Below are positions 2,195-30,569 of a stretch of DNA of 64,000 bases, in pieces. Within the stretch, counting starts at the first letter, position 1; the number at the start of each line of letters is the position of its first letter. The position numbers were made by a program, and so were the translations under genes. The notes below the pieces were generated by a model. The model worked only from the letters and a program-made list of their open reading frames with translations, made no database searches and was not told the origin of the DNA. The stretch comes from a virus: positions 1 through 64,000 of IMG/VR virus record IMGVR_UViG_3300028802_000008, one strand, 5' to 3'.

Positions 2195-2885
2195 GTAGCG
2201 GTCAGTTCGACCGACCGCCACAAAGTCCCGGAAAGTTGGGACCGCACCTTGACAACCAAAGACCCCGCTGCTGGTGGAACGTCCTAGAGGGATGAACCAC
2301 TACCACCACCTAAGCCCCAGTACTTACTGGCCGTTCGCAAAGCTCAACGGTTTACCCTCGGGTATGACGAAAAGGTATTAGGTGGAGGATGGACCGGCTG
2401 AAAGCTATGGGCTTGAGCATTGCTCGCCTAGTGCTGACAGATTCCCGGTCGGCAGAAAGCATGGCACTTGTGCCCTCTGCTACTGGCGTGACTGCCATAG
2501 GGGGTCTTAGGTGGTGGCACATTGAAAAGTGAAGATATCCGAAAGCACGGAGTAAGTGCAGGCGTTCGTTGACCTATACGGTCGGTGAAATGAGCCCGCG
2601 CTGCCGTAGTAAGTTGACCTAGTGGTGTACCGGGTTAGCGCAACAAGACGACGGAGTGGCTGTCAAAGTCAACCTGAGTCGTAACGTGGAACGAGATCAA
2701 AGTCCGAGGGCTTTGGTGAGGACTGTCCTAGTAACTAGCGCCGATTCCGACCGGTAGAACTAACAATAAGCTACGATCGTAGATGATTAAGTTCCGGGGA
2801 TTAGCTCAATAAAGTAATCGCAAAATCACGAGTAGAGTCCGCACTTACAGATGTGCTTTCGGTTGCCAATGGTGTCTCTTGGTCG
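2195..2885 (+). ncRNA. Candidate large structured ncRNA (about 690 nt), family unassigned
   Basis: No ORF of 60 aa or more in any frame 1910-2844; long-range helices 2303-2314/2506-2517, 2539-2548/2853-2862 and 2552-2559/2841-2848 plus many nested hairpins; possible TAGACT -10 at 2183; ends approximate. Confidence 0.7.
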
Positions 2886-2897
2886 GTTTACGGGACG

Positions 2898-3013
2898 TGG
2901 CAGGGGTCGGGAGAGCGCTCCCGGTCGGGAGGGGATTACCCCTCCCGGTCGGCGCTCTAGTCGGCGCTCGGGAGGGGATTACCCCTCCCGGTCGGCGCTC
3001 CCGACCCCTGCCA
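2898..3013. repeat. Palindromic element: 16-bp terminal inverted repeats enclosing two 33-bp direct repeats
   Basis: TGGCAGGGGTCGGGAG (2898-2913) / CTCCCGACCCCTGCCA (2998-3013); direct repeats 2925-2957 and 2968-3000; 2898-2920 identical to 49-71. Confidence 0.9.
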
Positions 3014-3094
3014 TCCCGAAAGCATCCGAACTTGTATCGGACGCTTTCGGGGTGCGGGAATCCCCCACGCCCACTTTGACCAGGGAGAAACACT

Positions 3095-3430
3095 ATGACT
3101 TACCACACGCCCGATGAGATCGCTGCTTACCTTGGTGAGCCGGTCGACTTCACTCACGACATCGGGTTGATCCACACTTGCGTGCGGATTGTCGGGCGCT
3201 TTGCTCCCGGCGATCCTCAACGCGACGCGGTCCTTGTGAACGACGCTGCCGATTCGATCTTTGACTTTGTCGGAGATTACTTGGCAGAGCCGGTGACGGC
3301 CTACTTCGGACATACACTTGCCGAGTACCGTCCGTCACTTTGGAGCCGGACAAAGCGACGCTTTGTTCGGATCATCCAAAGCCTGGACGGCTTGCTGTTC
3401 TCGCTCCGGTCGCTTGGACCGCAGCGATGA
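3095..3430 (+). CDS. Hypothetical protein, 111 aa
   Basis: AGGGAG RBS and hairpin leader. Confidence 0.75.
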   Translation: MTYHTPDEIAAYLGEPVDFTHDIGLIHTCVRIVGRFAPGDPQRDAVLVNDAADSIFDFVGDYLAEPVTAYFGHTLAEYRPSLWSRTKRRFVRIIQSLDGLLFSLRSLGPQR

Positions 3431-3633
3431 TCAAAACACTTCCCATTCCAACTGTCCTTATCGGGAACGTCGATGGCGTCAAAGCGTGGATTGCTTTGAC
3501 GTTGGATCGTTCACTTGATTCGATGGAGTTTATCGGAGACGAGATTTACGAATCCGGTCCCATCGACACTTCACTTGACTACCTCGGCCGCATTGACTTG
3601 TGGTCGGACAGTCTCGTGATCGAAAGCCACTGA
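3427..3633 (+). CDS. Hypothetical protein, 68 aa
   Basis: ATGA overlap with the upstream gene. Confidence 0.65.
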   Translation: MIKTLPIPTVLIGNVDGVKAWIALTLDRSLDSMEFIGDEIYESGPIDTSLDYLGRIDLWSDSLVIESH

Positions 3634-3744
3634 CACTTTGGCGGCACCGACTTCGGTCGGTGTCGTCCCATAAGGCAGCGAACTTGTGTCGCTGCCTTAT
3701 GGGGCGAGGGATAAGCCCACGTCCACTTACCAGGGAGACAAACC

Positions 3745-3945
3745 ATGTTGTTCGTTGTCGAAAGCAACGATCCAGTCCCTTTCATCTTCATGGTGGAAGC
3801 GGAAACGCACAACGATGCTGCTCAAGTGGCAAACGCTTTCCTGCTCTCAAAGGGCTTGATTGACGTGAACTTCAGCACCATCACCTTGGCTGAACTTACT
3901 GCGGAAGTGGTAAGGGAAGCCCAGGATATCTTGACAAGCCACTGA
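3745..3945 (+). CDS. Hypothetical protein, 66 aa
   Basis: AGGGAG RBS and hairpin leader. Confidence 0.7.
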   Translation: MLFVVESNDPVPFIFMVEAETHNDAAQVANAFLLSKGLIDVNFSTITLAELTAEVVREAQDILTSH

Positions 3946-4120
3946 CTTGTCGGGCGGCATAAGCTCAAGGCATGGGCTTGTGTCGCCCCACAAGCATTCA
4001 AAGCTAAGTTCAAAAAACAAACCACGCTTATGTGGGTATGTTCGGTTGAGCCTGAAATTTGAACGCTTGTGGGGCGAGGGAAAGTATCCCACGTCTAAAC
4101 CGACACCAAGGAGATACAAA

Positions 4121-4543
4121 ATGCACATCATTGTCATCGGAAATGTCGTGGAGGGATTCAAGTTCTTTGGACCCTTCTCCGACATCAAAACGGAAGCGCA
4201 GGCGATCTTGGACGAGCACCCTGAGGGTGTTTGGACCGAGCTTCAGTCAGTGCCTTCGGACGAGGCAAAGTACCTCAAAAGCTTCGGCATCAAGAAAGTC
4301 GAAGTGGCCCGCGGTACCTTCTGGACTGTGATCCAGTACTTGCACACTTACGGTGATACCGGTTCTTCCGTGATCACCGAAGGTGGCGACCATCACTGGC
4401 TAAGTGAGGACGCAGCCAAATCCGCTAAGCGGGTCTACGAAGTCTGCACCGCTTACCACGGTAAGTCGCCCAGTGAAGTGATGGAGGCTTTCGGGAACTA
4501 CTTCCCGGAAGAGTTCTGGCCCCTTGTGGAGCCGATGTACTGA
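4121..4543 (+). CDS. Hypothetical protein, 140 aa
   Basis: AAGGAG RBS before the ATG at 4121. Confidence 0.75.
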   Translation: MHIIVIGNVVEGFKFFGPFSDIKTEAQAILDEHPEGVWTELQSVPSDEAKYLKSFGIKKVEVARGTFWTVIQYLHTYGDTGSSVITEGGDHHWLSEDAAKSAKRVYEVCTAYHGKSPSEVMEAFGNYFPEEFWPLVEPMY

Positions 4544-4573
4544 AGACAAGCCAAAGTTGAAAAACAAACCCAC

Positions 4574-4640
4574 GCTTATGTAGGTAAGCGCTGGTGAGCC
4601 TGAAAGTTGCGCGTGAGCCATCGAGCAAGTGTGATATACT
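4574..4640 (+). promoter_or_regulatory. Bipartite motif followed by an extended -10 promoter
   Basis: GCTTAT-N15-TGAGCCTGAAA at 4574-4605; TGnTATACT at 4632-4640. Confidence 0.6.
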
Positions 4641-4735
4641 TGTTCGATGGTTCACCGGAGCCTTTGTGTTCCCTTGCGATTCTCATTCCGAGAGCCGCAA
4701 GAACAAGCAATACCAAGAGACCATTGGAGGTCATA

Positions 4736-6268
4736 ATGTCAATCACCAAGTCATGCTTGGATTGCCCGTCACTTCTGACGAAGGACGAAGCGGAAACATT
4801 CTTTGGAGTCGCCAACGCGGCTCCGATGTGCTCCCGCTTTGGCCACATCTTCGGACATGTGGGCAATCAAAGTGTGTATCTGGAAGCTGCGACCAAGATG
4901 GCGGCGGGCTGCACGTCTTATGGACAGCCTGCTGCATCGAGCCCAGCTTCCGACCTCACTTTGTCGTGGTTCAACCCAAGGCCGGAGTTGCTCAACGCGA
5001 CTTCGACTGGTCCCAGCTTCTGCGGGGACTGCAAGAACTACGACGAAGTGATGAACGGTTGTGCTGCAACGGGAAGAGTGATCTTCCCGGAGCGCGTCAA
5101 GCAGGAAGCCGTCAACTGCGCTTGGAGCCGTATCGGCGCACCAAGTGAAGCAGTTGGCAGCAAGCTGGACGCGTGGGGCACGGCTGCTCAAGTGTTCGTG
5201 CGGAACGCGACGACGACGCCAAGTGCGCCGCCGCCGCCGCCACCGAAGACGGTCAAGAAAGTGAAAGCCATCTTCGACCCTGCGACTTATTCTTCCGACG
5301 CTCCGGTGACGGAAGATCACAAGAAGCAGGGCATTCGGGCGTGGTTCAAGCTGGAGACAAAGCGAGGCAAGGTCATGTACCTGCCGATCTTTGAAGGATC
5401 GTTCTTCGGTGAGAATGAAGCGTTGATTCCGACTGCCAAGTCGGAGCACGGCGATCCTACCTTGTATATCGACCACGCGAACTTGATCGAAGAGTTCGCC
5501 ATCATGGTCTACAAGAAAGACCTGAACTTGGTCATCGAAGGGGAGCCGGGAACCGGTAAGACGGATGGTTGGCGTTACTTGGCACATCGTCTCAACATGC
5601 CTTTCGTGCGCCTTGCGTACAACGAGGCAAGTGAGTCGGATCAGTTCCTCGGCTTGTACGAGTTCGATCCCATCAAGGGAACGTACTTGAATCCGGGGAT
5701 GCTTCCCGAATGGTGGGTGCAGCAATGCTTCCTCCTTTCGGATGAGCCAAACACGCCAGACTCCAACGCGATCATGCAAGCGTATCGGTCGATGAACGAC
5801 TCCTCAAGGGAGTTGATCGTCTACAAAGAGCGCTTCCGTCGTCACGATTACTGCTTCCACGCGATGGCGATGAATCCACACTGGGACTTCCGGAACATCG
5901 GAACGAAGCCACTTGCCAGTGCGGATTCCCGCAGGCTTGCATTCTTCTGGATGCCAAACCCGGATGAGAAGATGCTTCGACAGATCATCTCTTCCACGGT
6001 TGAGCGTCTTGATGGTGTCGAGCCTGACAAGAAGCTTCTCGATGTGATGATCAAGATCGGCAACGATCTTCGCAACATGTCGAAAGAGGGTACGCTTCCG
6101 GACTTCTGGACCGTATCCCAAGAGATCAAGGTCGCCCGTCTCGTGGATGACTTTGGTCTGGAGGGTGCGTACAAGCGTGCCTACTTCAACTACATCTCGC
6201 CCGACGACGCGGAAGCGGCTTTGGGCGCGATCAAGTCCCACATTCCTTATGGAGCGGACTTCCAGTAA
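4736..6268 (+). CDS. MoxR/CobS/NirQ-type AAA+ ATPase with Cys-rich N-terminus
   Basis: Walker A GEPGTGKT, Walker B LLSDE, AMNP sensor; CxxC motifs in the N-terminus; GGAGG RBS; vWA partner downstream. Confidence 0.85.
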   Translation: MSITKSCLDCPSLLTKDEAETFFGVANAAPMCSRFGHIFGHVGNQSVYLEAATKMAAGCTSYGQPAASSPASDLTLSWFNPRPELLNATSTGPSFCGDCKNYDEVMNGCAATGRVIFPERVKQEAVNCAWSRIGAPSEAVGSKLDAWGTAAQVFVRNATTTPSAPPPPPPKTVKKVKAIFDPATYSSDAPVTEDHKKQGIRAWFKLETKRGKVMYLPIFEGSFFGENEALIPTAKSEHGDPTLYIDHANLIEEFAIMVYKKDLNLVIEGEPGTGKTDGWRYLAHRLNMPFVRLAYNEASESDQFLGLYEFDPIKGTYLNPGMLPEWWVQQCFLLSDEPNTPDSNAIMQAYRSMNDSSRELIVYKERFRRHDYCFHAMAMNPHWDFRNIGTKPLASADSRRLAFFWMPNPDEKMLRQIISSTVERLDGVEPDKKLLDVMIKIGNDLRNMSKEGTLPDFWTVSQEIKVARLVDDFGLEGAYKRAYFNYISPDDAEAALGAIKSHIPYGADFQ

Positions 6269-6397
6269 GCCTGGACCGTCGGCTTCCCCTGACAAGGGAG
6301 GCCGAACGGCCCGATGAGCACTCAAAGTTCACGCTTTGAGTGCTCATCGGACTGCAAAGTCCAAAACAACCGACACCAGGCAACCAAGGAGATCAAG

Positions 6398-8734
6398 ATG
6401 CAAATCACACAGGACAAGTTCGACCAAGGTCGACGTGCTCTGGAGCGCTTCACCAAGCTGATCCAAGTCCGATACAAGCCGCTCTTGCGAGCGGTGACGG
6501 GCAACGAGAAGCTGGACGTGAAGCCTCACTCATCACAAGCGGTGACAGACGGAAAAACCGTCTGGCTCCCGGTCCCCTTGGCGCTTGGAGACGAGACACT
6601 GGAACACGACAAGTCCTTGTGTGGACTGCGTGACTTGGCAGACATGAAAATGCTTTGCCCGATGTGCGAAGTCGAAGATGGGATAGACGCAATGGTCTTC
6701 CACGAATCGGCCCATATCACGGAGAAGTCCTTTGAGAAGCTAAACGGACGGACGTTCCTCAAGATCGTCCAGCCGATAGTCGAGCCTTACCTTGATCAAC
6801 TCCCGCTGGACAAGCGAGACAAGATCGAGCGTGAGATTCGTCAAGAGACCGCTCCGATGATCGCATCGAGCAAGCTGGACCCTTGGCTGCCGTTCGCGTT
6901 GAACATCATCGAAGACATCTACGTCAACCGTCGCTTGTATAAGTACCGGGAGGGTGTGGAAGTTGCGATGAAGCTCACGTCCCGCAAGACATTCGAGAAC
7001 GGAATCGAAGATCTCAATTCCGAAAGCAACCACCTGTGGAAAGACAATGATCCCACCGCGCAAGCGTTGATCAGTGCCTACCTTGCAGGCCAGGGGCTTG
7101 AGGACTTGGGATCTTGTCTGCATCCCGATCACGACCTCACAAACGATCCGGAAGTGTTGGCGATTGTCGGGAAGATTCCCGGCCATTGTGCGATCCAAGA
7201 TCGCGTGGAGTTGGCGATGAAGTTGATGATGCACTTGCGGTCCTTGGGCTATTGCCCGACCAAAAGCACATCTCCTCTTCCTCCTCCTCCTCCTCCGACC
7301 GAGCCGCAAGGCGAAACCGAGCCGCAGCCACCGCAAGGTGAAAGCGAACCGGAGCCGGGTAAGGGTGAGAGTGGTGACCAGGAAGGTGAAGCCGAAGAGG
7401 ATGACGAAGCCGAGAGCAATCACGGCGAAGAGTCAAACGACGAAGCTGATCCTTCCGGGAACCCGGAAGCGTCGGAGTCCGAAGATGAAGGCGACGAAGA
7501 GGAAGATGGAAGCGAAAGCTCCGAGTCTGACTCTATAAGTGAAAGCTCCGTCGAGCCTGAAAATGAGGACGAAGACGAAATGACGGGCAAGGGACGCGGA
7601 CATTCGGAAGAGACCGAAGAGTCTGACGACGACGAAGGCGAAAGCGAAGATGGTCAAGTTGAGGGTCAAATCGGGGAAGAGCCCGTCGAGCCTGAAAATG
7701 AGACCGGAAGCACTGAGCCAACGGAAGAGTCGACTTGGGAGCCTCCGACGGACGATGAGGTTGACGAAGCGCTAAACAGAGCGCGGAAGATGTTGGAAGA
7801 GATCATGGGCCACGATGAATACGGTCCAAGCAACTCCAACTCAAGTCAGGATGGAGACGTGATCAAGCAGGTGATCGAGCAGGCTGGCTTCGACCATCCT
7901 TCCGAAAGCCTGCGTGGCGGCGTCGATCTTCAAACGAAGAACGACTACCCGTACAACGATCCCAACTTGTATGCACCGGAAATCAAGGTGCCCAAGCACA
8001 TGCTGACTCCTCCGCTCTCTCGCTTGCGTGTCGTGTTCTCCTCCAACAAGAAGACCGGAATTGAAAGGTCGCTCAAGTCTGGCACTCGCCTTGACACGAT
8101 GCACTTGTATCGTGCCGGGACGGATGACAAGCGAATCTTTGGAAAGCGCAACGTCCCCAAGAACCGTGACTGGTTCGTGCTTATCGGGTTGGACTTCTCC
8201 GGAAGTACCGATGCAAACGGGGCCGACGCTGCCCACAAGATGGCGGGCCACGCGGTCGGCGAACTTCTCTATCAGCTTGACATCAAGTTCGAGATGTACG
8301 CCCACACAAGTGGAACGAAGCGTGACCAGGATGGCAATACTCAACTCGCTTTGGAGCATGTGCTCATCAAGGGCGTGGATGAGAATTGGAGAGACAAGAG
8401 CGTTCAAAGGATGCTCTTCTCTCAACGCGGTCGTGGCTGCAACTTAGACGGCCACTCGTTGGAACAGTATCGCAAGCGTATCGAAGCTCAACGAGCGACG
8501 GACAAACTCCTCCTCTACTTCACGGACGGCGCAATGCCTGCCTTGAACGCGCATGAGGAACTTCCCATCCTCAAAGAGAACATCGAGATCTTGCGTCGAA
8601 GCCGAACTACCTTGATCGGCGTCGGCTACCGGACGGATTCCCCCAAGCAGCATGGCTTGGACACAATCGAAATCAATGGTCCGGAAGATATTGCTTCCAT
8701 CGTCAAGGGCTTGGAGGATCGTCTCCTGCGCTAA
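6398..8734 (+). CDS. CobT-like vWA protein with HExxH motif and acidic linker
   Basis: FHESAH, NIIEDIYVN, long D/E-rich linker, MIDAS DFSGS and FTDG. Confidence 0.85.
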   Translation: MQITQDKFDQGRRALERFTKLIQVRYKPLLRAVTGNEKLDVKPHSSQAVTDGKTVWLPVPLALGDETLEHDKSLCGLRDLADMKMLCPMCEVEDGIDAMVFHESAHITEKSFEKLNGRTFLKIVQPIVEPYLDQLPLDKRDKIEREIRQETAPMIASSKLDPWLPFALNIIEDIYVNRRLYKYREGVEVAMKLTSRKTFENGIEDLNSESNHLWKDNDPTAQALISAYLAGQGLEDLGSCLHPDHDLTNDPEVLAIVGKIPGHCAIQDRVELAMKLMMHLRSLGYCPTKSTSPLPPPPPPTEPQGETEPQPPQGESEPEPGKGESGDQEGEAEEDDEAESNHGEESNDEADPSGNPEASESEDEGDEEEDGSESSESDSISESSVEPENEDEDEMTGKGRGHSEETEESDDDEGESEDGQVEGQIGEEPVEPENETGSTEPTEESTWEPPTDDEVDEALNRARKMLEEIMGHDEYGPSNSNSSQDGDVIKQVIEQAGFDHPSESLRGGVDLQTKNDYPYNDPNLYAPEIKVPKHMLTPPLSRLRVVFSSNKKTGIERSLKSGTRLDTMHLYRAGTDDKRIFGKRNVPKNRDWFVLIGLDFSGSTDANGADAAHKMAGHAVGELLYQLDIKFEMYAHTSGTKRDQDGNTQLALEHVLIKGVDENWRDKSVQRMLFSQRGRGCNLDGHSLEQYRKRIEAQRATDKLLLYFTDGAMPALNAHEELPILKENIEILRRSRTTLIGVGYRTDSPKQHGLDTIEINGPEDIASIVKGLEDRLLR

Positions 8735-8855
8735 GGGAGGCGACACTCGATCACCGAAAGGTGGTCGAGTGTCCCTCAAGCCAGACAATCTTCACGGATT
8801 GCCTGGCTTGAGGGTCACTCGACCCAAACCGACAATCAAGAGAAACGAGACAATC

Positions 8856-9812
8856 ATGTCTATCGACACCAAGCTGGCTCAGGCACTTACCGTGCTTGAG
8901 CCGACGGCAGAGGCCATCTTGAAGAACCGTGGAACAGACTTCACGGATCAAGATATCGTCCCCTTCCAGCCGCTCCTGGACTTCCCGATGAGGAAAGTTC
9001 TGGCGTCTTATGAGGGAACGAATTCGTTCTTGATGGACCTCCGTCGTAAGCCGAATTGGACGAACCGCCAAGCTCGTGCAGTGGCAAACATCATGCGCCG
9101 TGAACTTCGGGGTGAGAACAGCAAGTTCGGGACAAACCCGAACAATCCCGTGGCACCGCGCAACTACACTTGCTACTACTGCAACGAAGTGCTCGTTGGG
9201 CTTGACGCCCTGTACGATCACCAAGCGGCGGTCCACCAGAAGGGCAAGCGCTACAGGGGTGAGCAAGTCGGGTCGAACGGCCCGGTTGAAACCACTCACT
9301 TCGGTGCTCCGACTGGGCCGATGGTTCCCGTTCTTCCGGATTACAAGCCGGAACTGAACATCGACTTGCGTACCTTCCTTCCCGGACGGTTCGCGATCGA
9401 AGACAAGACGGGAACCTTGAGGTTCTTCATCATCACCGAATTGAAGCGGCGGACGCGCCTTTGGGGCAAGTTCGTCTGGACGAAGTACGCATACGCCAAC
9501 GAGTACCTTGAGAAAGGTGATCGTACCGTGCGCGAACAAGCCGGTGATACGAAGAAGTTCATCGGCAAGCAGCGGATCAACCAGCCGGTCTACTTTGGCG
9601 AGGAAGAAGCCCTCATCAAAATGATCGCCGACAATCCTACCGAAGCGATGATTCGCTACGGCAAGGAACTTCATCGTTGCGGCTACTGCGGTAAGTCCCT
9701 GACAGACGAACTATCAAGGGAACGCGGTATCGGGCCGGATTGCTGGGAAAACAAGCACATCCCGCAGTTGATCCGCTTGGGCGTTGCTGCTGCCAAAGCA
9801 GCGACGCCGTGA
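8856..9812 (+). CDS. DUF6011-like Zn-finger protein
   Basis: C-terminal CGYCGKSLTDELSRERGIGPDC; internal C2H2-like CYYC...H...H. Confidence 0.75.
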   Translation: MSIDTKLAQALTVLEPTAEAILKNRGTDFTDQDIVPFQPLLDFPMRKVLASYEGTNSFLMDLRRKPNWTNRQARAVANIMRRELRGENSKFGTNPNNPVAPRNYTCYYCNEVLVGLDALYDHQAAVHQKGKRYRGEQVGSNGPVETTHFGAPTGPMVPVLPDYKPELNIDLRTFLPGRFAIEDKTGTLRFFIITELKRRTRLWGKFVWTKYAYANEYLEKGDRTVREQAGDTKKFIGKQRINQPVYFGEEEALIKMIADNPTEAMIRYGKELHRCGYCGKSLTDELSRERGIGPDCWENKHIPQLIRLGVAAAKAATP

Positions 9813-9985
9813 ACGGCGCAAGGATGATCGGTTGTGAAGTCCACGACCGAAAGAAAAACACAGCGACAGCCAAGCATGTCAACGACAGGCTAAGGCGTCG
9901 GAGCAAGCGAATCGAGAAGGAAAGCATCCACAAGTCCGTCAAGGACGGGTCGCTGCTTTACTCCTCGCTTCACAAGATGGCTTGA
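9809..9985 (+). CDS. Small basic hypothetical protein
   Basis: GTGA overlap with the upstream stop; start uncertain. Confidence 0.4.
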   Translation: MNGARMIGCEVHDRKKNTATAKHVNDRLRRRSKRIEKESIHKSVKDGSLLYSSLHKMA

Positions 9986-10095
9986 ACATTGCGGATCGGG
10001 GAAAAACCCATAAGGCGCGACGCTGTCGAGCCTGGGTTTTTCCCCCTTCCGGAGTATCCAAGCTCCACACCGACAATCAACCAAGGAGACAAACC

Positions 10096-10941
10096 ATGAG
10101 CACCAACTTCATTGCGGACGCCCCAGAACCTTCGCGTTCGACGGGCACAATCACCCTTTCTTGGGGATTGCTGAACATTCCGCTTTCGATCTATACCGGA
10201 ACGGAAGAGACGAATGTCAGCCGCAAAGAGTTTGTAGACGGCGACGTTGAAAGGCCCGCGGGTCGAGCAGTGATTGACAAGATCTCGCAAGAGATCATCG
10301 ACTCTTCCCGCGTGGTTCGGATGGCTGAGGCAAGCAACGGAACGTTCGTCGTCCTTACGGATGATGAGCAGGCTGCTTGCACAGGCGTTCGGAACGTTGC
10401 CGAAGTTGTGACTTTCATCGACAACCGTGACATCTTCAACTACATGCCGAACAAGCTGATGCAGGTACGGCCGAAGCGAGACAAGGGAATTCCGAATCCT
10501 GCTGGGGCCAAGGCGTTCTCGCTTCTCATCTCTGCGATGGCAAGCCAGAGCGTCACGGCGCTGGTCAAGGTCGCACTTCGCGGCCCTGCTCAGTACGCGC
10601 TTCTAACGGCGACGGGCGATCTCTTGTTCGTCCATTCGTCCGACGGAGTACGCAAGCCACTTGCGATGGGCTTGACGGCAGTGACTCCTCAAGAGCAGGA
10701 TATGGCAAGGAACTTGATCAGTGCCATCGGCATTGCCCAAGCTCCCCATATTCCAGACGTGACGGCGCAAGCGATCGGACAGTACGTCGATCAGAAGGCA
10801 GGCGGAAACACGCCAGCCATGCAAGCAGCGCCGCCCGCGACCAACGGGACGGACTTGATGGATGAACTGATGAAGTCAATCGAAGCCAAGAAGAACGCTC
10901 CCAAGTGGGGCGCTCCGAGTGGGCTTCCGGTAAACGTATGA
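10096..10941 (+). CDS. ku: Ku-like DNA end-binding protein
   Basis: N-terminal RSTGTITLSWGLLNIPLSIY and C-terminal DLMDELMKSI resemble prokaryotic Ku; AAGGAG RBS. Confidence 0.8.
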   Translation: MSTNFIADAPEPSRSTGTITLSWGLLNIPLSIYTGTEETNVSRKEFVDGDVERPAGRAVIDKISQEIIDSSRVVRMAEASNGTFVVLTDDEQAACTGVRNVAEVVTFIDNRDIFNYMPNKLMQVRPKRDKGIPNPAGAKAFSLLISAMASQSVTALVKVALRGPAQYALLTATGDLLFVHSSDGVRKPLAMGLTAVTPQEQDMARNLISAIGIAQAPHIPDVTAQAIGQYVDQKAGGNTPAMQAAPPATNGTDLMDELMKSIEAKKNAPKWGAPSGLPVNV

Positions 10942-11216
10942 GGCGTCGTAAGCGAGAGCCGAAGGAACCTCCGGTTCTCAACCTTACGGAGTTGCCTGAC
11001 GACGAGCCACAGAAGTACACAAGGGTCGGCATGACACCGAACATCTTCGATCTGGAAGAAGCACTCAAGCTTCTCAAGAGCGATCATCCGTTCGATGTTC
11101 GGCTGACCCGAAGTCAACTGAAGTGGCTGATGAAAACCTGCGAGAAGGATTTCGATATCAAGTTTCGACATCCTTATCCGGGTGGTGACGTGAAAGAGAG
11201 CGTTGCACCCTGGTAA
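10938..11216 (+). CDS. Hypothetical protein, 92 aa
   Basis: ATGA overlap with ku. Confidence 0.6.
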   Translation: MRRRKREPKEPPVLNLTELPDDEPQKYTRVGMTPNIFDLEEALKLLKSDHPFDVRLTRSQLKWLMKTCEKDFDIKFRHPYPGGDVKESVAPW

Positions 11217-11311
11217 GTAGGACGTAGCGCGAAGGCTGGAAGGGTGCGATCCTTCCAGCCCCGCACGGTACATCCTAAGTACCATCCGACAATCAAACAG
11301 GGAGATACACC

Positions 11312-11512
11312 ATGAGCAAGCGAATCACGGTTTCGCGTGATATCGAGACGACGACCAAAGAGGTCGTCACCATCGAAGTCCCGGACGACTTCCCCTTCCT
11401 GGGGAATCCGTACTTGGACGAAGAGTTCGATCCCTTCAACTACAAGGTGATCGAGGAGCGCGAACAGATCGAAGAGACTCACGAGTGGGGCTCTTGGGAG
11501 ATCGCGTCATGA
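11312..11512 (+). CDS. Acidic hypothetical protein, 66 aa
   Basis: AGGGAG RBS and hairpin leader. Confidence 0.7.
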   Translation: MSKRITVSRDIETTTKEVVTIEVPDDFPFLGNPYLDEEFDPFNYKVIEEREQIEETHEWGSWEIAS

Positions 11513-11742
11513 CTAGCTTGGAACTGACCCGAGGCAAGCTCGACAAGAGTATCCCGCACGCTTATCTGTTCCTTCCGCTCGTGCAGGAAGGCACGGGCAA
11601 GGAGGGACTGATCACGCCAAGAGCACCATTGACAGTCATCGTTGGCCCCCGAAGCGCGACACGCAAGTCGCAACTCAAGGAGGTCGCCTTCGGCAGCATT
11701 GACGAAATCCTGGAAGCGGGATGGAGGTTTGACGAAGCATGA
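11509..11742 (+). CDS. Hypothetical protein, 77 aa
   Basis: ATGA overlap. Confidence 0.65.
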   Translation: MTSLELTRGKLDKSIPHAYLFLPLVQEGTGKEGLITPRAPLTVIVGPRSATRKSQLKEVAFGSIDEILEAGWRFDEA

Positions 11743-11834
11743 TCTGGGGGTACTTGGGTGCCGTTGGCTTCATCATGTTTGTGGGCATCGTCTGCTTCAT
11801 GATCGGCTACGAAATGGGACGACGCCATTGGTAA
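11739..11834 (+). CDS. Small membrane peptide, 31 aa
   Basis: ATGA overlap; one hydrophobic helix. Confidence 0.45.
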   Translation: MIWGYLGAVGFIMFVGIVCFMIGYEMGRRHW

Positions 11835-11840
11835 GCGGAT

Positions 11841-11878
11841 AAGCCCGCCCTCCTTCGGGAAGGCGGGCTTTCGCTTTG
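11841..11878 (+). terminator. Intrinsic terminator closing the early block
   Basis: AAGCCCGCC...GGCGGGCTT followed by TCGCTTTG. Confidence 0.75.
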
Positions 11879-11889
11879 TCGTTTATTCT

Positions 11890-11942
11890 CTTATAAACAC
11901 CTTGCTTTGCACTTATAAACCCTTTCCTTTGCACTTATAAAC
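11890..11942 (+). repeat. AT-rich 22-bp-period repeats (CTTATAAAC x3)
   Basis: CTTATAAAC at 11890, 11912 and 11934, with CTTTGCA before copies 2 and 3. Confidence 0.85.
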
Positions 11943-11976
11943 GCTTTCACGCGCCCAAGGAGTACGGTAGGAGAAT

Positions 11977-12038
11977 GCTTATGAAGAGAAGTGCTGTTGA
12001 GCTTGGGATTTATGTAGGGCGTTCTGATGAGCCTGAAA
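11977..12038 (+). promoter_or_regulatory. Two adjacent copies of the bipartite motif
   Basis: GCTTAT-N15-TGAGCTTGG at 11977; ATTTAT-N14-TGAGCCTGAAA at 12008. Confidence 0.65.
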
Positions 12039-12921: not shown

Positions 12922-12978
12922 TTGACACCCCTTCTGTAATCGTGTATGGTCTGTTCCTACCGACAACTGATTACAGAA
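12922..12978 (+). promoter_or_regulatory. SigA-type promoter with an overlapping inverted repeat
   Basis: TTGACA-N17-TATGGT (12922-12950); TTCTGTAATC (12932-12941) / GATTACAGAA (12969-12978). Confidence 0.65.
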
Positions 12979-13361: not shown

Positions 13362-13771
13362 ACAACACCGAACGCTTCCTCTCCGTCATCATGACGGGTG
13401 GCCGCTACATCGACATCTGTGAGGGTCTCGGTGGCTTCCACAACGATGCCTGGATGGAACTCATCCTTGGTCATGGCGACATCACCATGACGCCCGATGG
13501 CAAAGGCTGGGTGATCGATTGCCTGCCACATCAGTCCACGCACATCGACACCGGCATCAGCATCTTGCGTGTCATCCACTTCGACCAGGACTACGAGAAC
13601 TTCCTGTTCGCTCAGGTGTGGGATCGCCGCGACGAGCGCCCGACGTGGAAGTACGCCCTGTTCTACAACACCGGAGCCAACGAATGGGTGCCCGAGGTCA
13701 TCGCGGCCTGGGACGAACGCCCCAAGTTCGCAGTCGTGAGTGCGATCGTTGACGATTGGCCTGTGGCATGA
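13358..13771 (+). CDS. Hypothetical protein, 137 aa
   Basis: GTGA overlap. Confidence 0.7.
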   Translation: MNNTERFLSVIMTGGRYIDICEGLGGFHNDAWMELILGHGDITMTPDGKGWVIDCLPHQSTHIDTGISILRVIHFDQDYENFLFAQVWDRRDERPTWKYALFYNTGANEWVPEVIAAWDERPKFAVVSAIVDDWPVA

Positions 13772-13935
13772 CTGCCACTATAATTACAGGTGGCTCGGAC
13801 CCTCATGCAAATAAGCGCACCATGACATGTTCGCGGTGCGAACGGTCTGTACGACCAAGTCACAGCCGATGCTGTGCCGAATGTGCATGGGGGAGTCACT
13901 CCCATTGGTGCAACAAGCGACAGGAATCAAAATGA
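13768..13935 (+). CDS. Small Cys-rich protein, 55 aa
   Basis: ATGA overlaps at both ends; CSRC...CCAEC. Confidence 0.5.
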   Translation: MTATIITGGSDPHANKRTMTCSRCERSVRPSHSRCCAECAWGSHSHWCNKRQESK

Positions 13936-14765
13936 GTACCCCCGAAGAGTTCCAGAAGTATGTGTTGGATCGTGGCCGAAGCCACGCCACGGCCATGAAC
14001 TACGCGTCCGACCTCCGCAAGTTCCAAGGGTGGGTTTCCCAGGAAGGGGGTGGGGGGTCAAACTCATTTTCGGATGACGTTGAGGCGTTTATCAATGAGC
14101 TTCGGGGCAACCCTGAAGTTTCGGTGGCGTCGATCCTCCGCTACATGTCATCGTTGCGAAGCTATTGGCAGTACGCGTCGCGCACCGATCCGACGATCAC
14201 GCAACCGTTCGTGGACTACAAGGGACCGCGCACACACAAGCTGTCGTCGCACCCACTGCCCGGAATGATGGCTGACGTGGATGCGATGATCCGGTCGACC
14301 TACCGGCCGCACCACAAGATTCTGATCGCTCTGTGCGGGTACGCGGGCTGTCGCGTGACCGAAGCCCGCAGTATCACGCCCCGATCCTTGTTCCAGGATC
14401 ACCAGGGGAACTGGTGGCTGGGGATCCACGGCAAAGGCGGCACCTATCGGGAAGTTCCCGTCATGGACAAGCTGTTCGACCTGCTGGACGACGCGCCACC
14501 GACCGATCCCGATGAGCCTTATGTCAGGATCAACGATCGAGCGGCAAGAGCGGCCATCACGAACATTGGAGTGCGAGCACGAATCTCACGTCCGGTCGCC
14601 AGCCACGACCTCCGTCACACGTTCGGCTCCTGGGTCTACGGACAGACGAAGGATCTCCGCGTCACTCAGGAACTTCTGGGGCACGCGGACTCCCGAACCA
14701 CTCAGGGCTACACACACATCGACCAGGAAAGGAAGCGAGCGGCAATCATGGGGGCGTTGACGTGA
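13932..14765 (+). CDS. Tyrosine recombinase (XerC/D-like)
   Basis: Catalytic residues in GCRVTE, GKG, HDLRH, LLGH and TQGY; 277 aa, no obvious arm-binding domain. Confidence 0.92.
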   Translation: MSTPEEFQKYVLDRGRSHATAMNYASDLRKFQGWVSQEGGGGSNSFSDDVEAFINELRGNPEVSVASILRYMSSLRSYWQYASRTDPTITQPFVDYKGPRTHKLSSHPLPGMMADVDAMIRSTYRPHHKILIALCGYAGCRVTEARSITPRSLFQDHQGNWWLGIHGKGGTYREVPVMDKLFDLLDDAPPTDPDEPYVRINDRAARAAITNIGVRARISRPVASHDLRHTFGSWVYGQTKDLRVTQELLGHADSRTTQGYTHIDQERKRAAIMGALT

Positions 14766-16622: not shown

Positions 16623-16876
16623 GTCAAGCCAGGCCGTCCGTAACGCTCCCGGCCCACACTTTCTTCTACACGACGGATCAGGTCGCACTGATTCTGAACG
16701 TGGAAGAGGCGTGGGTCCGGGAGCGTTGCTACCTCGTAGGCAGAATGCCCGACACCCATGTTCGGAGCAAGTTGCAAGTCGTCAATCTCGCGGAGCCGAA
16801 TGAACGGCCTCGATGGAGGATCAGTGATCGCGAACTCACTCGCTGGCTGATCCGGAAAGGGTACCAAGTCTCATGA
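16619..16876 (+). CDS. Excisionase/MerR-like HTH protein
   Basis: YTTDQVALILNV...WRISDREL. Confidence 0.7.
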   Translation: MSQARPSVTLPAHTFFYTTDQVALILNVEEAWVRERCYLVGRMPDTHVRSKLQVVNLAEPNERPRWRISDRELTRWLIRKGYQVS

Positions 16877-17487
16877 ATGAGACGACCCGTTTACTGAAGT
16901 TCAATTCAGAGATGTTGTTGTGGTTCGACCTGGAGACCACCGGGTTGGACGAGAAGACCGAGGTCATCCTGGAAGTGGGGTGGGGGATCACCGGGTTCGA
17001 CCTGGAGTGGATTCTTGAACCCATCAGTTACTTGGTCGACGCGAACATCATTTTTCAACCCACCAGGGTCGAAGTAAAAGGACTGGGGAAAGCTCACGAT
17101 GTCGATCCCTACGTCTACAAGATGCACCAGCAATCTGGACTGTGGCAAGACCTGATGGACAAGAAACGTCTGTCATTGTCAGAAGTCGAGCGCACCATCC
17201 TCTCGGTGCTGAACATCAACTCCAAAGCCAAGATCACGATGGCCGGTGCGGGAGTCGCCCAGTACGACATGCGGTGGATCAAGTACCACATGCCTGATCT
17301 GCACGCACGCTTGACCTACTACACGATCGACACCGGCATCCACGAACGTGTGGAGAGCCTGGTGAGGCGTCGCGAGATCCGAGGGCCGAGTTCAACCGCC
17401 AAGCATCGCTCCGTGGACGACATTCTTCAGAGCCACGAACGACTTATCCGCTACCGAACTGAAGTCCTGACCGGTGTGGCACGGTGA
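16873..17487 (+). CDS. orn: Oligoribonuclease-like DEDDh exonuclease
   Basis: LWFDLETTGLD, ILEV, MHQQSGLW and HRSVDDI. Confidence 0.8.
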   Translation: MNETTRLLKFNSEMLLWFDLETTGLDEKTEVILEVGWGITGFDLEWILEPISYLVDANIIFQPTRVEVKGLGKAHDVDPYVYKMHQQSGLWQDLMDKKRLSLSEVERTILSVLNINSKAKITMAGAGVAQYDMRWIKYHMPDLHARLTYYTIDTGIHERVESLVRRREIRGPSSTAKHRSVDDILQSHERLIRYRTEVLTGVAR

Positions 17488-30285: not shown

Positions 30286-30569
30286 TGCTGGAAGCCCCCT
30301 GGCGTCGTAAGGCCAAATGCTTCGGGCTGGACCCGAACATGTTTGTTCCTTCGACACCCGGTGGCTCACTCAACCCCGCCAAGAACATCTGCAACGGCCG
30401 AGACGGACTTCCTCCCTGTCCCGTCCGCCAAGAATGCAATACCTTCGCCAACGATCACAGTTTGATCGGCGTCTACGGCGGGGTCGTCCACTCATCCCGT
30501 TCGACGGAGATCGTCGTGTTCGTTGAGATCCAGGATAGCCGACCGCACCGGAGCCCCCAAGCTCCTTGA
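30285..30569 (+). CDS. whiB: WhiB-family transcription factor
   Basis: W...AKC...AKNIC...CPVRQEC...GVYGG. Confidence 0.88.
   Translation: MLEAPWRRKAKCFGLDPNMFVPSTPGGSLNPAKNICNGRDGLPPCPVRQECNTFANDHSLIGVYGGVVHSSRSTEIVVFVEIQDSRPHRSPQAP

Follow-up and report, generated by a model that had tools for sequence, protein, structure and literature searches.

What lies between the early genes of this phage, and what does it do? The DNA analysed here (64,000 nt, called the window below) comes from an uncultured soil phage of actinobacteria, and in its early gene block (3.0-11.3 kb) all genes without direct coupling to their neighbour were preceded by one type of folded RNA module. Gene joins with an ATGA overlap (3427, 10938, 11509 and 11739) had no module.

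Layout of the hairpin-leader modules

The usual order of a module was hairpin A, hairpin B, a short hairpin C, an unpaired leader, AAGGAGA and ATG. In four gaps, hairpin A (9-16 bp, with UUCG or GAAA loops in some cases) directly followed the stop codon; hairpin B (12-21 bp) was the long stem. The leader 3' of hairpin C comprised about 25-35 unpaired, G-poor nt, usually with (A/C)CCGACA and an AC-rich linker. The features were as follows.

3012..3054, plus strand: hairpin B in the leader of gene 3095, 18 bp with one G.U and one A.C, loop ACUUGUA (gap region 3005-3094, fold z -4.9)
3052..3097, plus strand: leader of gene 3095 (repeat family D4), hairpin C 3052-3068, linker CCACTTTGACC, SD AGGGAGA 3082-3088, ATG 3095
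3643..3664, plus strand: hairpin A in the gap before gene 3745, 9 bp, C(UUCG)G loop, 9 nt past the stop codon
3665..3705, plus strand: hairpin B in the same gap, about 18 bp, loop ACUUGUG (region 3634-3744, z -7.0)
3704..3747, plus strand: leader of gene 3745, hairpin C with GGG-ataag-CCC core, CCACTTACC linker, SD 3732-3738, ATG 3745
3952..3988, plus strand: hairpin A in the gap before gene 4121, 16 bp including G.U pairs
3989..4071, plus strand: hairpin B in the same gap, a 12-bp closing stem around a ~70-nt insert with a promoter-like bipartite motif inside it (GAGCCTGAAA at 4048; repeat family D3) (region 3946-4095, z -7.3)
4073..4123, plus strand: leader of gene 4121, hairpin C 4073-4095, CCGACA 4100-4105, SD AAGGAGA 4108-4114, ATG 4121
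4571..4738, plus strand: ATPase gene leader, of a different type, with promoter-like GAGCCTGAAA at 4596, family-conserved AAGAGACCATTGGAGGTC, SD partly inside a small hairpin, ATG 4736, z -8.3
4613-4655 (20 bp) and 4673-4701, plus strand: hairpins of the ATPase leader, from folding
6276..6309, plus strand: hairpin A in the gap between the ATPase and vWA genes, 13 bp, one double compensatory change relative to L007
6313..6348, plus strand: hairpin B in the same gap, 16-17 bp perfect, loop UUCACG, z -9.35
6349..6400, plus strand: leader of gene 6398 (vWA), hairpin C 6349-6362, CCGACA 6370-6375, SD 6386-6392, ATG 6398
8742..8773, plus strand: hairpin A in the gap between the vWA and DUF6011 genes, 14 bp, GAAA loop, z -7.9
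8773..8814, plus strand: hairpin B in the same gap, 18 bp with one A.C, loop UUCACG, also seen in the L019 orthologue, where the stem differs
8812..8858, plus strand: leader of gene 8856 (DUF6011), hairpin C 8812-8825, CCGACA 8829-8834, purine-rich 8838-8850, ATG 8856
9992..10051, plus strand: hairpin B in the gap before the Ku gene, 13 bp and 4 bp more past an internal loop, z -5.65
10051..10098, plus strand: leader of Ku gene 10096, hairpin C 10051-10066, CCGACA 10070-10075, SD 10083-10089
11218..11278, plus strand: hairpin B in the gap before gene 11312, core 11234-11260 (12 bp) on an irregular lower stem, z -4.5
11267..11314, plus strand: leader of gene 11312, hairpin C 11267-11283, CCGACA 11286-11291, SD 11299-11305
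11841..11880, plus strand: canonical intrinsic terminator closing the early block, 13-bp stem, C(UUCG)G loop, T-rich tail

Each gap was compared with 200 dinucleotide shuffles. The fold z-scores of the eight intergenic gaps in the 3.0-11.3 kb block all lay between -4.5 and -9.35, no shuffle folded as well, and a separate script of our own gave the same range. Windows of 60 nt at ≤ -35 kcal/mol occurred at 11 places in the 77-kb genome, 8 of them within its first 10.1 kb. The longest helix measured 17-23 bp in six of the eight gaps. The duplexes were mostly perfect, and among module hairpins an internal loop was seen only in 9992-10051 and 11218-11278.

These results confirmed that the modules are real, and that a first-pass annotation of the same DNA had understated them. 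The long stems it had listed were all found on reading the sequence (3012-3054, 3663-3707, 3983-4077, 6311-6350, 8773-8814, 9998-10045 and 11234-11260), with the 6311-6350 stem perfect over 17 bp and the loops as described (ACTTGTA and ACTTGTG in the 3012 and 3663 hairpins, TTCACG in the 6311 and 8773 hairpins), and so were its seven short hairpins. Its statement that the stems differ in sequence but keep their architecture also held: a repeat-family search placed the long stems in no family and found repetition just in the SD region and in two leaders, and the layout recurs in relatives. Absent from that annotation were the hairpins straight after the stop codon (3643-3664, 3952-3988, 6276-6309 and 8742-8773), the 20-bp hairpin 4613-4655 upstream of the ATPase gene, and the promoter-like repeat within the 3983-4077 hairpin.

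The CCGACA linker had been ascribed to the leaders in general. It was found in five of the seven (4100, 6370, 8829, 10070 and 11286), and the first two have CCACTT(TG)ACC in its place. As a word CCGACA is not enriched (7 observed versus 3.8 expected in 12 kb). Five of the seven copies sit 21-28 nt upstream of a start codon, directly past the short hairpin, outside the hairpins and on their 3' side; the corresponding distance is 15-35 nt in relatives. The motif keeps a single orientation in the early block, and a further copy lies at 12960. A TGTCGG partner was present in one gap only (3948 with 4100), and actinobacterial 16S rRNA is not known to carry a complement to CCGACA at its 3' end.

Plus-strand RNA selection, apparent operon context and mosaic joints

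Stem mismatches in 32 hairpins (430 Watson-Crick pairs) comprised 43 G:T versus 12 A:C (p = 3e-5), although the plus strand is A-rich and base composition alone would favour A:C over G:T. Compared with L019, hairpin B at 6313..6348 has three double compensatory changes in its outer 10 bp and no disruptive one. Repeat family D5, in which the leaders of genes 11312 and 10096 are paralogues (72% over 60 nt), likewise showed compensatory changes between its short hairpins. RNA-type loops, C(UUCG)G and GAAA, close some of the hairpins. No U-tract was found 3' of any module hairpin, as the first-pass annotation had noted for its stems, either by reading the sequence or in a terminator scan of the plus strand of the block, whose only flag was 11860-11877. 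The G:T bias, the compensatory changes and the lack of U-tracts in a block that does end in a terminator point to selection of the hairpins as plus-strand RNA.

The two-halved promoter-like motif is present in two gaps only (4048 and 4596), and its next copy lies at 12029. Since no full copy stands between 4596 and 12029, genes 6398-11834 would need read-through. Sigma-70-like sites were absent from gaps 6269-6397, 8735-8855, 9986-10095 and 11217-11311. Four modules thus appear to lie inside one operon, running from the motif at 4596 to the terminator 11841-11880; note that these boundaries rest on the motif, whose promoter role is our reading of it. The layout of this part of the block fits the single early transcript that the first-pass annotation had proposed. 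A search for this phage among RNA runs found none that contains it.

The same architecture with unrelated stems occurs in seven metagenome relatives (L007, L008, L009, L012, L013, L015 and L019), whose ATPases are 41-86% identical to that of the window phage. Breakpoints of the kind that the annotation would seek in relatives were found. Homology with L007 stops at start codon 3097 and restarts at 4098, at the CCGACA, with different genes between; in a contig from another soil sample, divergence begins at 3711, within hairpin C of the gene 3745 leader. The leader of the Ku gene shares 90% identity over 39 nt with an L013 leader that precedes an unrelated gene. About 20-60 nt with 72-95% identity are shared at such joints; the stems are not alike. 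Homology with relatives ends exactly at the leaders, indicating that gene units swap there.

Terminators, start-associated sites and DNA-level elements as less likely readings

Tail-less hairpins might stop or thin transcription, with the conserved segment before each gene acting as a phage-specific promoter, in which case each gene would be its own transcription unit. We consider this unlikely, although the hairpins begin a few nt past stop codons, often two or three in a cluster, and the promoter-like motif does occur in the gaps at 4048 and 4596. Ingham, Hunter and Smith (1995; cited in PMC3993855 and PMC2602773) reportedly described rho-independent terminators that lack a poly-U tail for the phiC31 early region; to judge by the title, these resemble the present hairpins as tail-less intergenic hairpins in an actinophage early region, and that precedent, which calls them terminators, speaks against a processing reading. 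Hairpin clusters have likewise been proposed as terminators (PMC8355165), and the PeSL stem-loops of T4-type phages are effective terminators beside promoters (PMC2839356). However, no hairpin here has the U-tract without which pure mycobacterial RNA polymerase does not terminate, with or without NusA and NusG, and nuclease contamination has been raised as a possible cause of earlier reports of tail-less termination (PMC3993855). The phage places a normal T-tailed terminator at the true block end, and conservation from hairpin B to the start consists of CCGACA and SD only, too little for a promoter; moreover, no TANNNT-type -10 was visible in the inspected leaders. Hairpin C must be transcribed because its pairing is kept by compensatory changes. 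Canonical intrinsic terminators were rejected for the module hairpins, which drew no scan flags and have no T run behind them. It is also unlikely that CCGACA, linker and SD form an mRNA site for one phage or host factor (protein or RNA), which would set early-gene translation jointly, with the hairpins as insulators only. Precedent is on record in the SAS of cluster K mycobacteriophages, a 13-bp motif GGGATAGGAGCCC located 3-9 bp from the start (PMC3203893). As here, it is an asymmetric actinophage motif tied to the ribosome sites of some non-structural genes, in one orientation, with ATG starts favoured and an inverted repeat often just upstream. Unlike SAS, the core here is CCGACA at 21-28 nt from the start; GGGATAGGAGCCC was not found within 3-9 bp of the start, and the leaders read (A/C)CCGACA...AAGGAGA. 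The ESAS are 17-bp inverted repeats with a consensus, whose RNA pairing is not kept and which are now read as SigA-like promoters plus operator, whereas the stems here lack a consensus, keep their RNA pairing and have a G:U bias. A shared factor would fit a core motif that is invariant down to 41% ATPase identity while its surroundings all change, that is one-directional 15-35 nt upstream of ATG in the early block and at 12960, and whose leader in one case is 90% conserved before unrelated genes; the nearest isolate, GTE7, carries a start-associated motif as well, but a different one (CCACCGAAAGGGGA). Yet a specific site would be expected to have more than 6-8 conserved bases, CCGACA is missing from two of the seven leaders, there is no candidate factor, and the long stems would be left unexplained.

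A role at the DNA level is very improbable, whether as ssDNA-folded cassette recombination sites (integron- or PeSL-like) or, for CCGACA, as a repressor site like the L5 stoperators, which it resembles in being asymmetric and one-directional (PMC3203893). The PeSL cassettes are likewise short regulatory elements that separate accessory early genes and coincide with gene-content joints; they are near-identical repeats that combine a sigma-70 promoter with a functional terminator and recombine by homology (PMC2839356). In contrast, most modules here have no promoter-like motif, U-tract or common stem sequence; a sigma-70-like early promoter was absent from the four gaps scanned, and the bipartite motif was limited to two gaps. 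The gene units of relatives do differ, with joints exactly at the leaders, and a tyrosine recombinase gene is present at 13827-14765. However, gene-boundary joints are expected in any case because only whole-gene recombinants survive, and the long stems have no sequence in common and so could not pair for homologous exchange. The excess of G:T over A:C and the RNA-type tetraloops favour RNA over plus-strand ssDNA. The integron-type sites that the first-pass annotation had offered as an alternative found no support: the recombinase scored 61.1 bits against TIGR02249 (cut-off 265) and best matched a generic XerC/XerD model, likewise under its cut-off, and no conserved inverted core sites (R''/R') or extrahelical bases accompany the mostly perfect stems. 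An attC identity was thus rejected.

A possible processing role and its relation to T7 signals

Bacteriophage T7 carries RNase III signals among its early genes (R0.3, R0.5, R1, R1.1 and R1.3). The modules resemble these in their strong, U-tract-free hairpins, which separate the cistrons of what appears to be one long early transcript, in the short leader and strong AAGGAGA-type ribosome site after each hairpin, and in the proposed outcome of individually stable messages with hairpin-protected ends. The T7 signals, however, are a sequence family with about two helical turns of duplex, built as stem, internal loop and stem, whereas the stems here are unrelated and mostly perfect over 12-21 bp; a T7-like family of sites with shared sequence was not found, as the long stems lie outside every repeat family. 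The modules also come in sets of two or three hairpins followed by the conserved single-stranded CCGACA, in a phage whose host is an actinobacterium; cleavage by RNase III, known for the T7 signals, is a prediction for them. Perfect stems of this length are shorter and more regular than the classical T7 signals, which speaks against processing.

We give a probability of about one half to the reading of the modules as intercistronic RNA processing, stability and translation-insulation elements of the early operon or operons of this soil actinophage. From their arrangement we infer that RNA polymerase would pass through the hairpins and that the long duplex would then be cleaved, host RNase III being the first candidate and, by analogy, a plausible one; alternatively, the hairpins may merely block exonucleases after cuts elsewhere. 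In both cases hairpin A would cap the 3' end of the upstream message and hairpin C the 5' end of the downstream one, while the locally closed hairpins would hold the ribosome site open, independently of the upstream gene, and CCGACA may contribute a role of its own. The leader is also, on this reading, the point where recombination joins different gene units, since it is the only sequence common to them. The modules are thus probably a familiar type of phage signal in a new form, which would cut, protect and insulate individual messages.

Folded units between the early genes

The full IMG/VR virus record comprises 77,319 bp, of which the window covers positions 1-64000, and its genes lie on the + strand between 3095 and ~30,570 and, past that point, on the - strand.

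Genes of the early block, and the recombinase downstream of it, referred to in the text (all + strand)
Small early ORFs, without family match
4736-6268, AAA ATPase
6398-8734, CobT/vWA-like protein
8856-9812, DUF6011 protein
10096-10941, Ku homologue
13827-14765, Xer-like tyrosine recombinase

Megablast of the window against phage records gave no match, Rfam (gathering thresholds) and tRNA scans of it found nothing, and IMG/VR searches for relatives, by protein and by alignment, found none. The nearest isolates in a protein search were GTE7-type Gordonia, Tsukamurella and Rhodococcus phages, with an ATPase identity of 29-30%. A WhiB gene (30300-30503) passed the Pfam cut-off, and of 14 genomes used as controls only Corynebacterium gave a hit to this family; therefore, the host is likely an actinobacterium.

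Non-overlapping early genes are separated by eight gaps of 90-192 nt each. All eight fold much better than dinucleotide shuffles (z = -4.9, -7.0, -7.3, -8.3, -9.35, -7.9, -5.65 and -4.5), and 0/200 shuffles folded as well as the native sequence in each gap, with which an independent script agreed. Genome-wide, 60-nt windows reached -35 kcal/mol at 11 places, 8 of which were within the first 10.1 kb. The first-pass annotation had listed long stems and short hairpins in this region, all of which were confirmed in the sequence. The anatomy is richer than that account, since in four of the eight gaps an extra hairpin (A) directly follows the stop codon. The order is thus A (in these four gaps), a long hairpin (B), a short hairpin (C) and then the leader. 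Note that sorting hairpins into A, B and C by minimum free energy (MFE) was too noisy, as alternative pairings merge them.

Hairpin A in the four gaps (+ strand)
3643-3664, C(UUCG)G loop
3952-3988
6276-6309
8742-8773, GAAA loop

Hairpin C is followed by 25-35 nt that are unpaired and G-poor, by an AAGGAGA or AGGGAGA Shine-Dalgarno (SD) sequence, and by a start codon that is invariably ATG. CCGACA, thought earlier to be common to the leaders, was present in five of seven; the first two carry CCACTT(TG)ACC. In the third leader, hairpin C is that of the first two, and CCGACA that of the later leaders. Genes that overlap their predecessor by ATGA (3427, 10938, 11509 and 11739) have no module. The ATPase leader differs: it contains a promoter-like motif, two hairpins (the first of 20 bp, at 4613-4655) and the family-conserved AAGAGACCATTGGAGGTC. 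Its stretch at 4719-4735 (AAGAGACC..ATTGGAG) is conserved in the related metagenome loci L007, L010, L012 and L013. Part of the ATPase SD lies inside a small hairpin, both in the window and in the relatives closest to it, and this may serve gene-specific translational control.

A repeat search within the window found no repeat family among the long stems. Repeats were limited to the SD region, whose four copies are 84-100% identical to the reference copy, and to the leaders of genes 10096 and 11312, which are 72% identical over 60 nt. In addition, the first 12 kb contain 10 copies of ACTTGT versus 1.9 expected (sites include 3030, 3682 and 4638); it forms a hairpin loop twice in the window, and the complementary CAAGT is present in loops of loci L013 and L015.

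Layout and base pairing in related phages

A protein search gave ATPase relatives at 41-86% identity, and 13 metagenome loci were compared. The layout of hairpins, short hairpin, (A/C/T)CGACA, SD and ATG was found before early genes in L007, L008, L009, L012, L013, L015/L016, L017 and L019, all with stems quite unlike the window's own. The layout is less distinct in L010 and missing from L018 (ATPase identity 30%). When IMG/VR was scanned with the pattern CCGACA...CAAGGAGA...ATG, at least 118 loci had one exact match each, which is chance level, and a looser CCGACA-leader pattern gave few multi-hit loci among the matches listed, all of them unrelated. One of these, the unrelated 71-kb phage L035, whose record has no ATPase, carries its own promoter-hairpin-leader unit three times (10480-10580, 11220-11310 and 13730-13820). 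In this unit TTGACA and TAACTT are 18 nt apart, with a palindrome in the spacer, and are followed by a short GC hairpin, CCGACA, SD and ATG. The early region of Gordonia phage GTE7 (JN035618.1, 50245-67777) also has long intergenic hairpins, some of which contain a word of the TGTGGTACTAT type. Its start-associated motif, located directly before several ATGs, is a different one (CCACCGAAAGGGGA).

In the transcript, a + strand G:T mismatch becomes a G.U pair; an A:C mismatch gives G.U only in the antisense RNA. Using an inverted-repeat search rule that scores G:T and A:C alike, we counted 430 Watson-Crick pairs in 32 hairpins from the window and relatives, with 43 G:T versus 12 A:C (binomial p = 3e-5); the + strand is A-rich, and composition alone would tend towards the opposite of this excess. 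The + strand was also more stable than the - strand by a mean MFE of 2.8 kcal/mol (p = 0.013) in a set that included some coding false positives, and for that reason the mismatch count is preferred. Hairpin B of the ATPase-to-vWA gap differs between the window and L019 by three double compensatory changes (U-A to A-U, C-G to U-A and A-U to G-C) and one G-C to G-U change, without disruption of the outer 10 bp, and hairpin A of the same gap shows one double change versus L007. Similarly, the stems of the two paralogous short hairpins (10051 and 11267) have diverged in sequence and still pair. Several hairpins have loops of the RNA-stable types C(UUCG)G or GAAA, and the loop UUCACG is common to the 8773 hairpin and its L019 orthologue despite different stems, and is also present on the 6311 hairpin. 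Together, the G:T bias, the compensatory changes and the loops show that the folded + strand RNA has been under selection. The same three observations oppose an interpretation of the hairpins as double-stranded operator palindromes.

Putative transcription signals and gene-unit variation

A bipartite motif, GCTTAT and GAGCCTGAAAT separated by 16-17 nt, occurs on the + strand only, at 1976, 2023 and 2070 (in tandem near 2 kb), 4048 (within a hairpin loop), 4596, 12029 (past the early terminator) and 19503; a weaker copy was seen near 1535. At 12029 an ATG lies five bases downstream of GAGCCT, as expected for a leaderless start, and on the basis of this spacing we read the motif as a promoter, probably of a non-SigA class. 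The 5' half of the 4596 copy is missing in L007. The early block ends in a stem with a T-rich tail (11841-11880; a terminator scan flags 11860-11877), and none of the intergenic hairpins was flagged by that scan. From 4596 to 12029 no motif with both halves was found, the partial copies at 6020, 7553 and 7688 being within coding sequence. Given the lack of a full motif and of a flagged hairpin terminator, genes 6398-11834 appear from these signals to require read-through of four hairpin clusters. No RNA dataset was listed with this stretch, and the one metatranscriptome compared gave four short, dissimilar pieces only.

A SigA/sigma-70-like site (TTGCAA, 16 nt, TATGAT preceded by TG) ends 6 bases before the ATG of a 48-aa ORF (1631-1777). 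The layout at 1597-1777 is of the leaderless actinobacterial transcript type and may represent the first early promoter; such consensus sites are not above the chance count in this region. Three direct repeats of (GCA)CTTATAAAC at 11885-11945, downstream of the early terminator and ahead of the next promoter-like motif, may be a regulator binding array at the early/middle boundary.

The gene-free stretch ahead of the first early gene (2223-2911) is 72% identical to L007 638-1337, and near its 3' end (~2864-2880) a 17-mer is unchanged in L010, L014 and L017, which fits a conserved structured RNA. A large composite palindrome of GGGAG/CGGTCGG-type words (2879-3011) adjoins the first leader, arrays of related words fill 1-200 and 1070-1370, and L007 has a shorter palindrome at the equivalent place (1327-1362). 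The complement of the leader motif (GGTCGGTTT) is present at 2881-2888, at the 3' end of this upstream RNA, and in L007 too. This match was set aside as coincidence, the GGTCGG stretch of L008 being apparently within a small local hairpin, as judged by eye.

Locus L007, with an ATPase 86% identical to that of the window, matches in four stretches.

Stretches of the window matched by L007
Upstream non-coding RNA region, 72%
3000-3097, first leader up to the start codon
4098-4177, start of gene 4121 with its leader; the match resumes two bases ahead of CCGACA
4280-7467, 81%

From the first leader to 4098, three genes (111, 68 and 66 aa) are present in the window and a coupled, unrelated pair (56 and 79 aa) in L007. 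One contig of a different soil sample tracks the window as far as 3711, a position within hairpin C, beyond which its leader is a different one. Furthermore, the Ku leader is 90% identical over 39 nt to a leader of L013 that has an unrelated gene behind it. The suggestion that relatives would vary in gene content with breakpoints at the hairpins is thus borne out at the level of pattern. At 11505-11739 of the window, a contig of another soil sample carries a diverged stretch of equal length in place of gene 11509-11742, with both flanks near-identical.

Interpretation and significance of the modules

The best-supported reading is that each module is a post-transcriptional unit making its early cistron act independently. 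The end hairpins would act as exonuclease barriers, the long duplex B would be the likely endonuclease target, and the locally closed fold would leave the ribosome site open. Cutting of B, as the three-hairpin layout would fit, would leave A and C as end caps. RNase III is a plausible candidate for the cutter because helices of 17-23 bp are present in 6/8 gaps, in our judgement longer than expected of a simple terminator or exonuclease barrier. T7 RNase III sites carry an internal loop, whereas most of these helices have none. T7 and PeSLs provide known examples of hairpins that connect early genes of phages and often coincide with mosaic joints; particular here are the A-B-C triplet, the CCGACA leader, conservation across a divergent actinophage lineage, and a module recognised by its architecture, the stems being non-homologous.

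The hairpins might instead be tail-less terminators followed by re-initiation, for which the title of a report on actinophage phiC31 points to a precedent. This explanation is weakened, however, by the U-tract that purified mycobacterial RNA polymerase requires for termination (PMC3993855), by the T-rich tail of the phage's own true terminator, and by the finding that nothing promoter-like is conserved before genes 6398-11312. That CCGACA marks a start-associated, SAS-like regulon (PMC3203893) is possible and compatible with independently acting cistrons. The related ESAS are consensus repeats in which RNA pairing is not kept and which are now read as SigA promoters plus operator, unlike the stems here. 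The first-pass annotation had offered ssDNA-folded recombination sites as its alternative; a DNA-level role of this kind is unlikely, as the Xer-like recombinase (13827-14765) is not an integron integrase, core sites are absent, and the stems have no common sequence.

A more far-reaching version of the post-transcriptional reading, which we consider rather improbable as a whole, is a dedicated punctuation system of one actinophage lineage. A double-strand RNase would consume B, the hairpins on either side would then cap the 3' end of one message and the 5' end of the following one, CCGACA would mark a standard 5' leader recognised by a conserved factor, and phages would exchange early-gene cassettes with this leader as the crossover point. 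If true, one element would serve both expression signals and gene mobility. The phage has a DEDD exonuclease gene (16873-17487) whose best NCBIfam match, oligoribonuclease, scored 81.6 bits, below the cut-off of 106; if active on RNA, the enzyme would bear on the reason for protective hairpins on messages.

The organisation of early expression in actinophages is poorly known, an explanation for start-associated sequences has been lacking since 2011, and tail-less 'terminators' are a matter of dispute in actinobacteria. The module family offers a clean test case, being defined by structure and not by sequence and kept across distant relatives, and its three hairpins and one short motif can be mutated separately. 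Should they act as self-contained insulators, the modules would be useful parts for multi-gene operons in actinobacteria. They also reveal the sites of gene-unit exchange among related phages.
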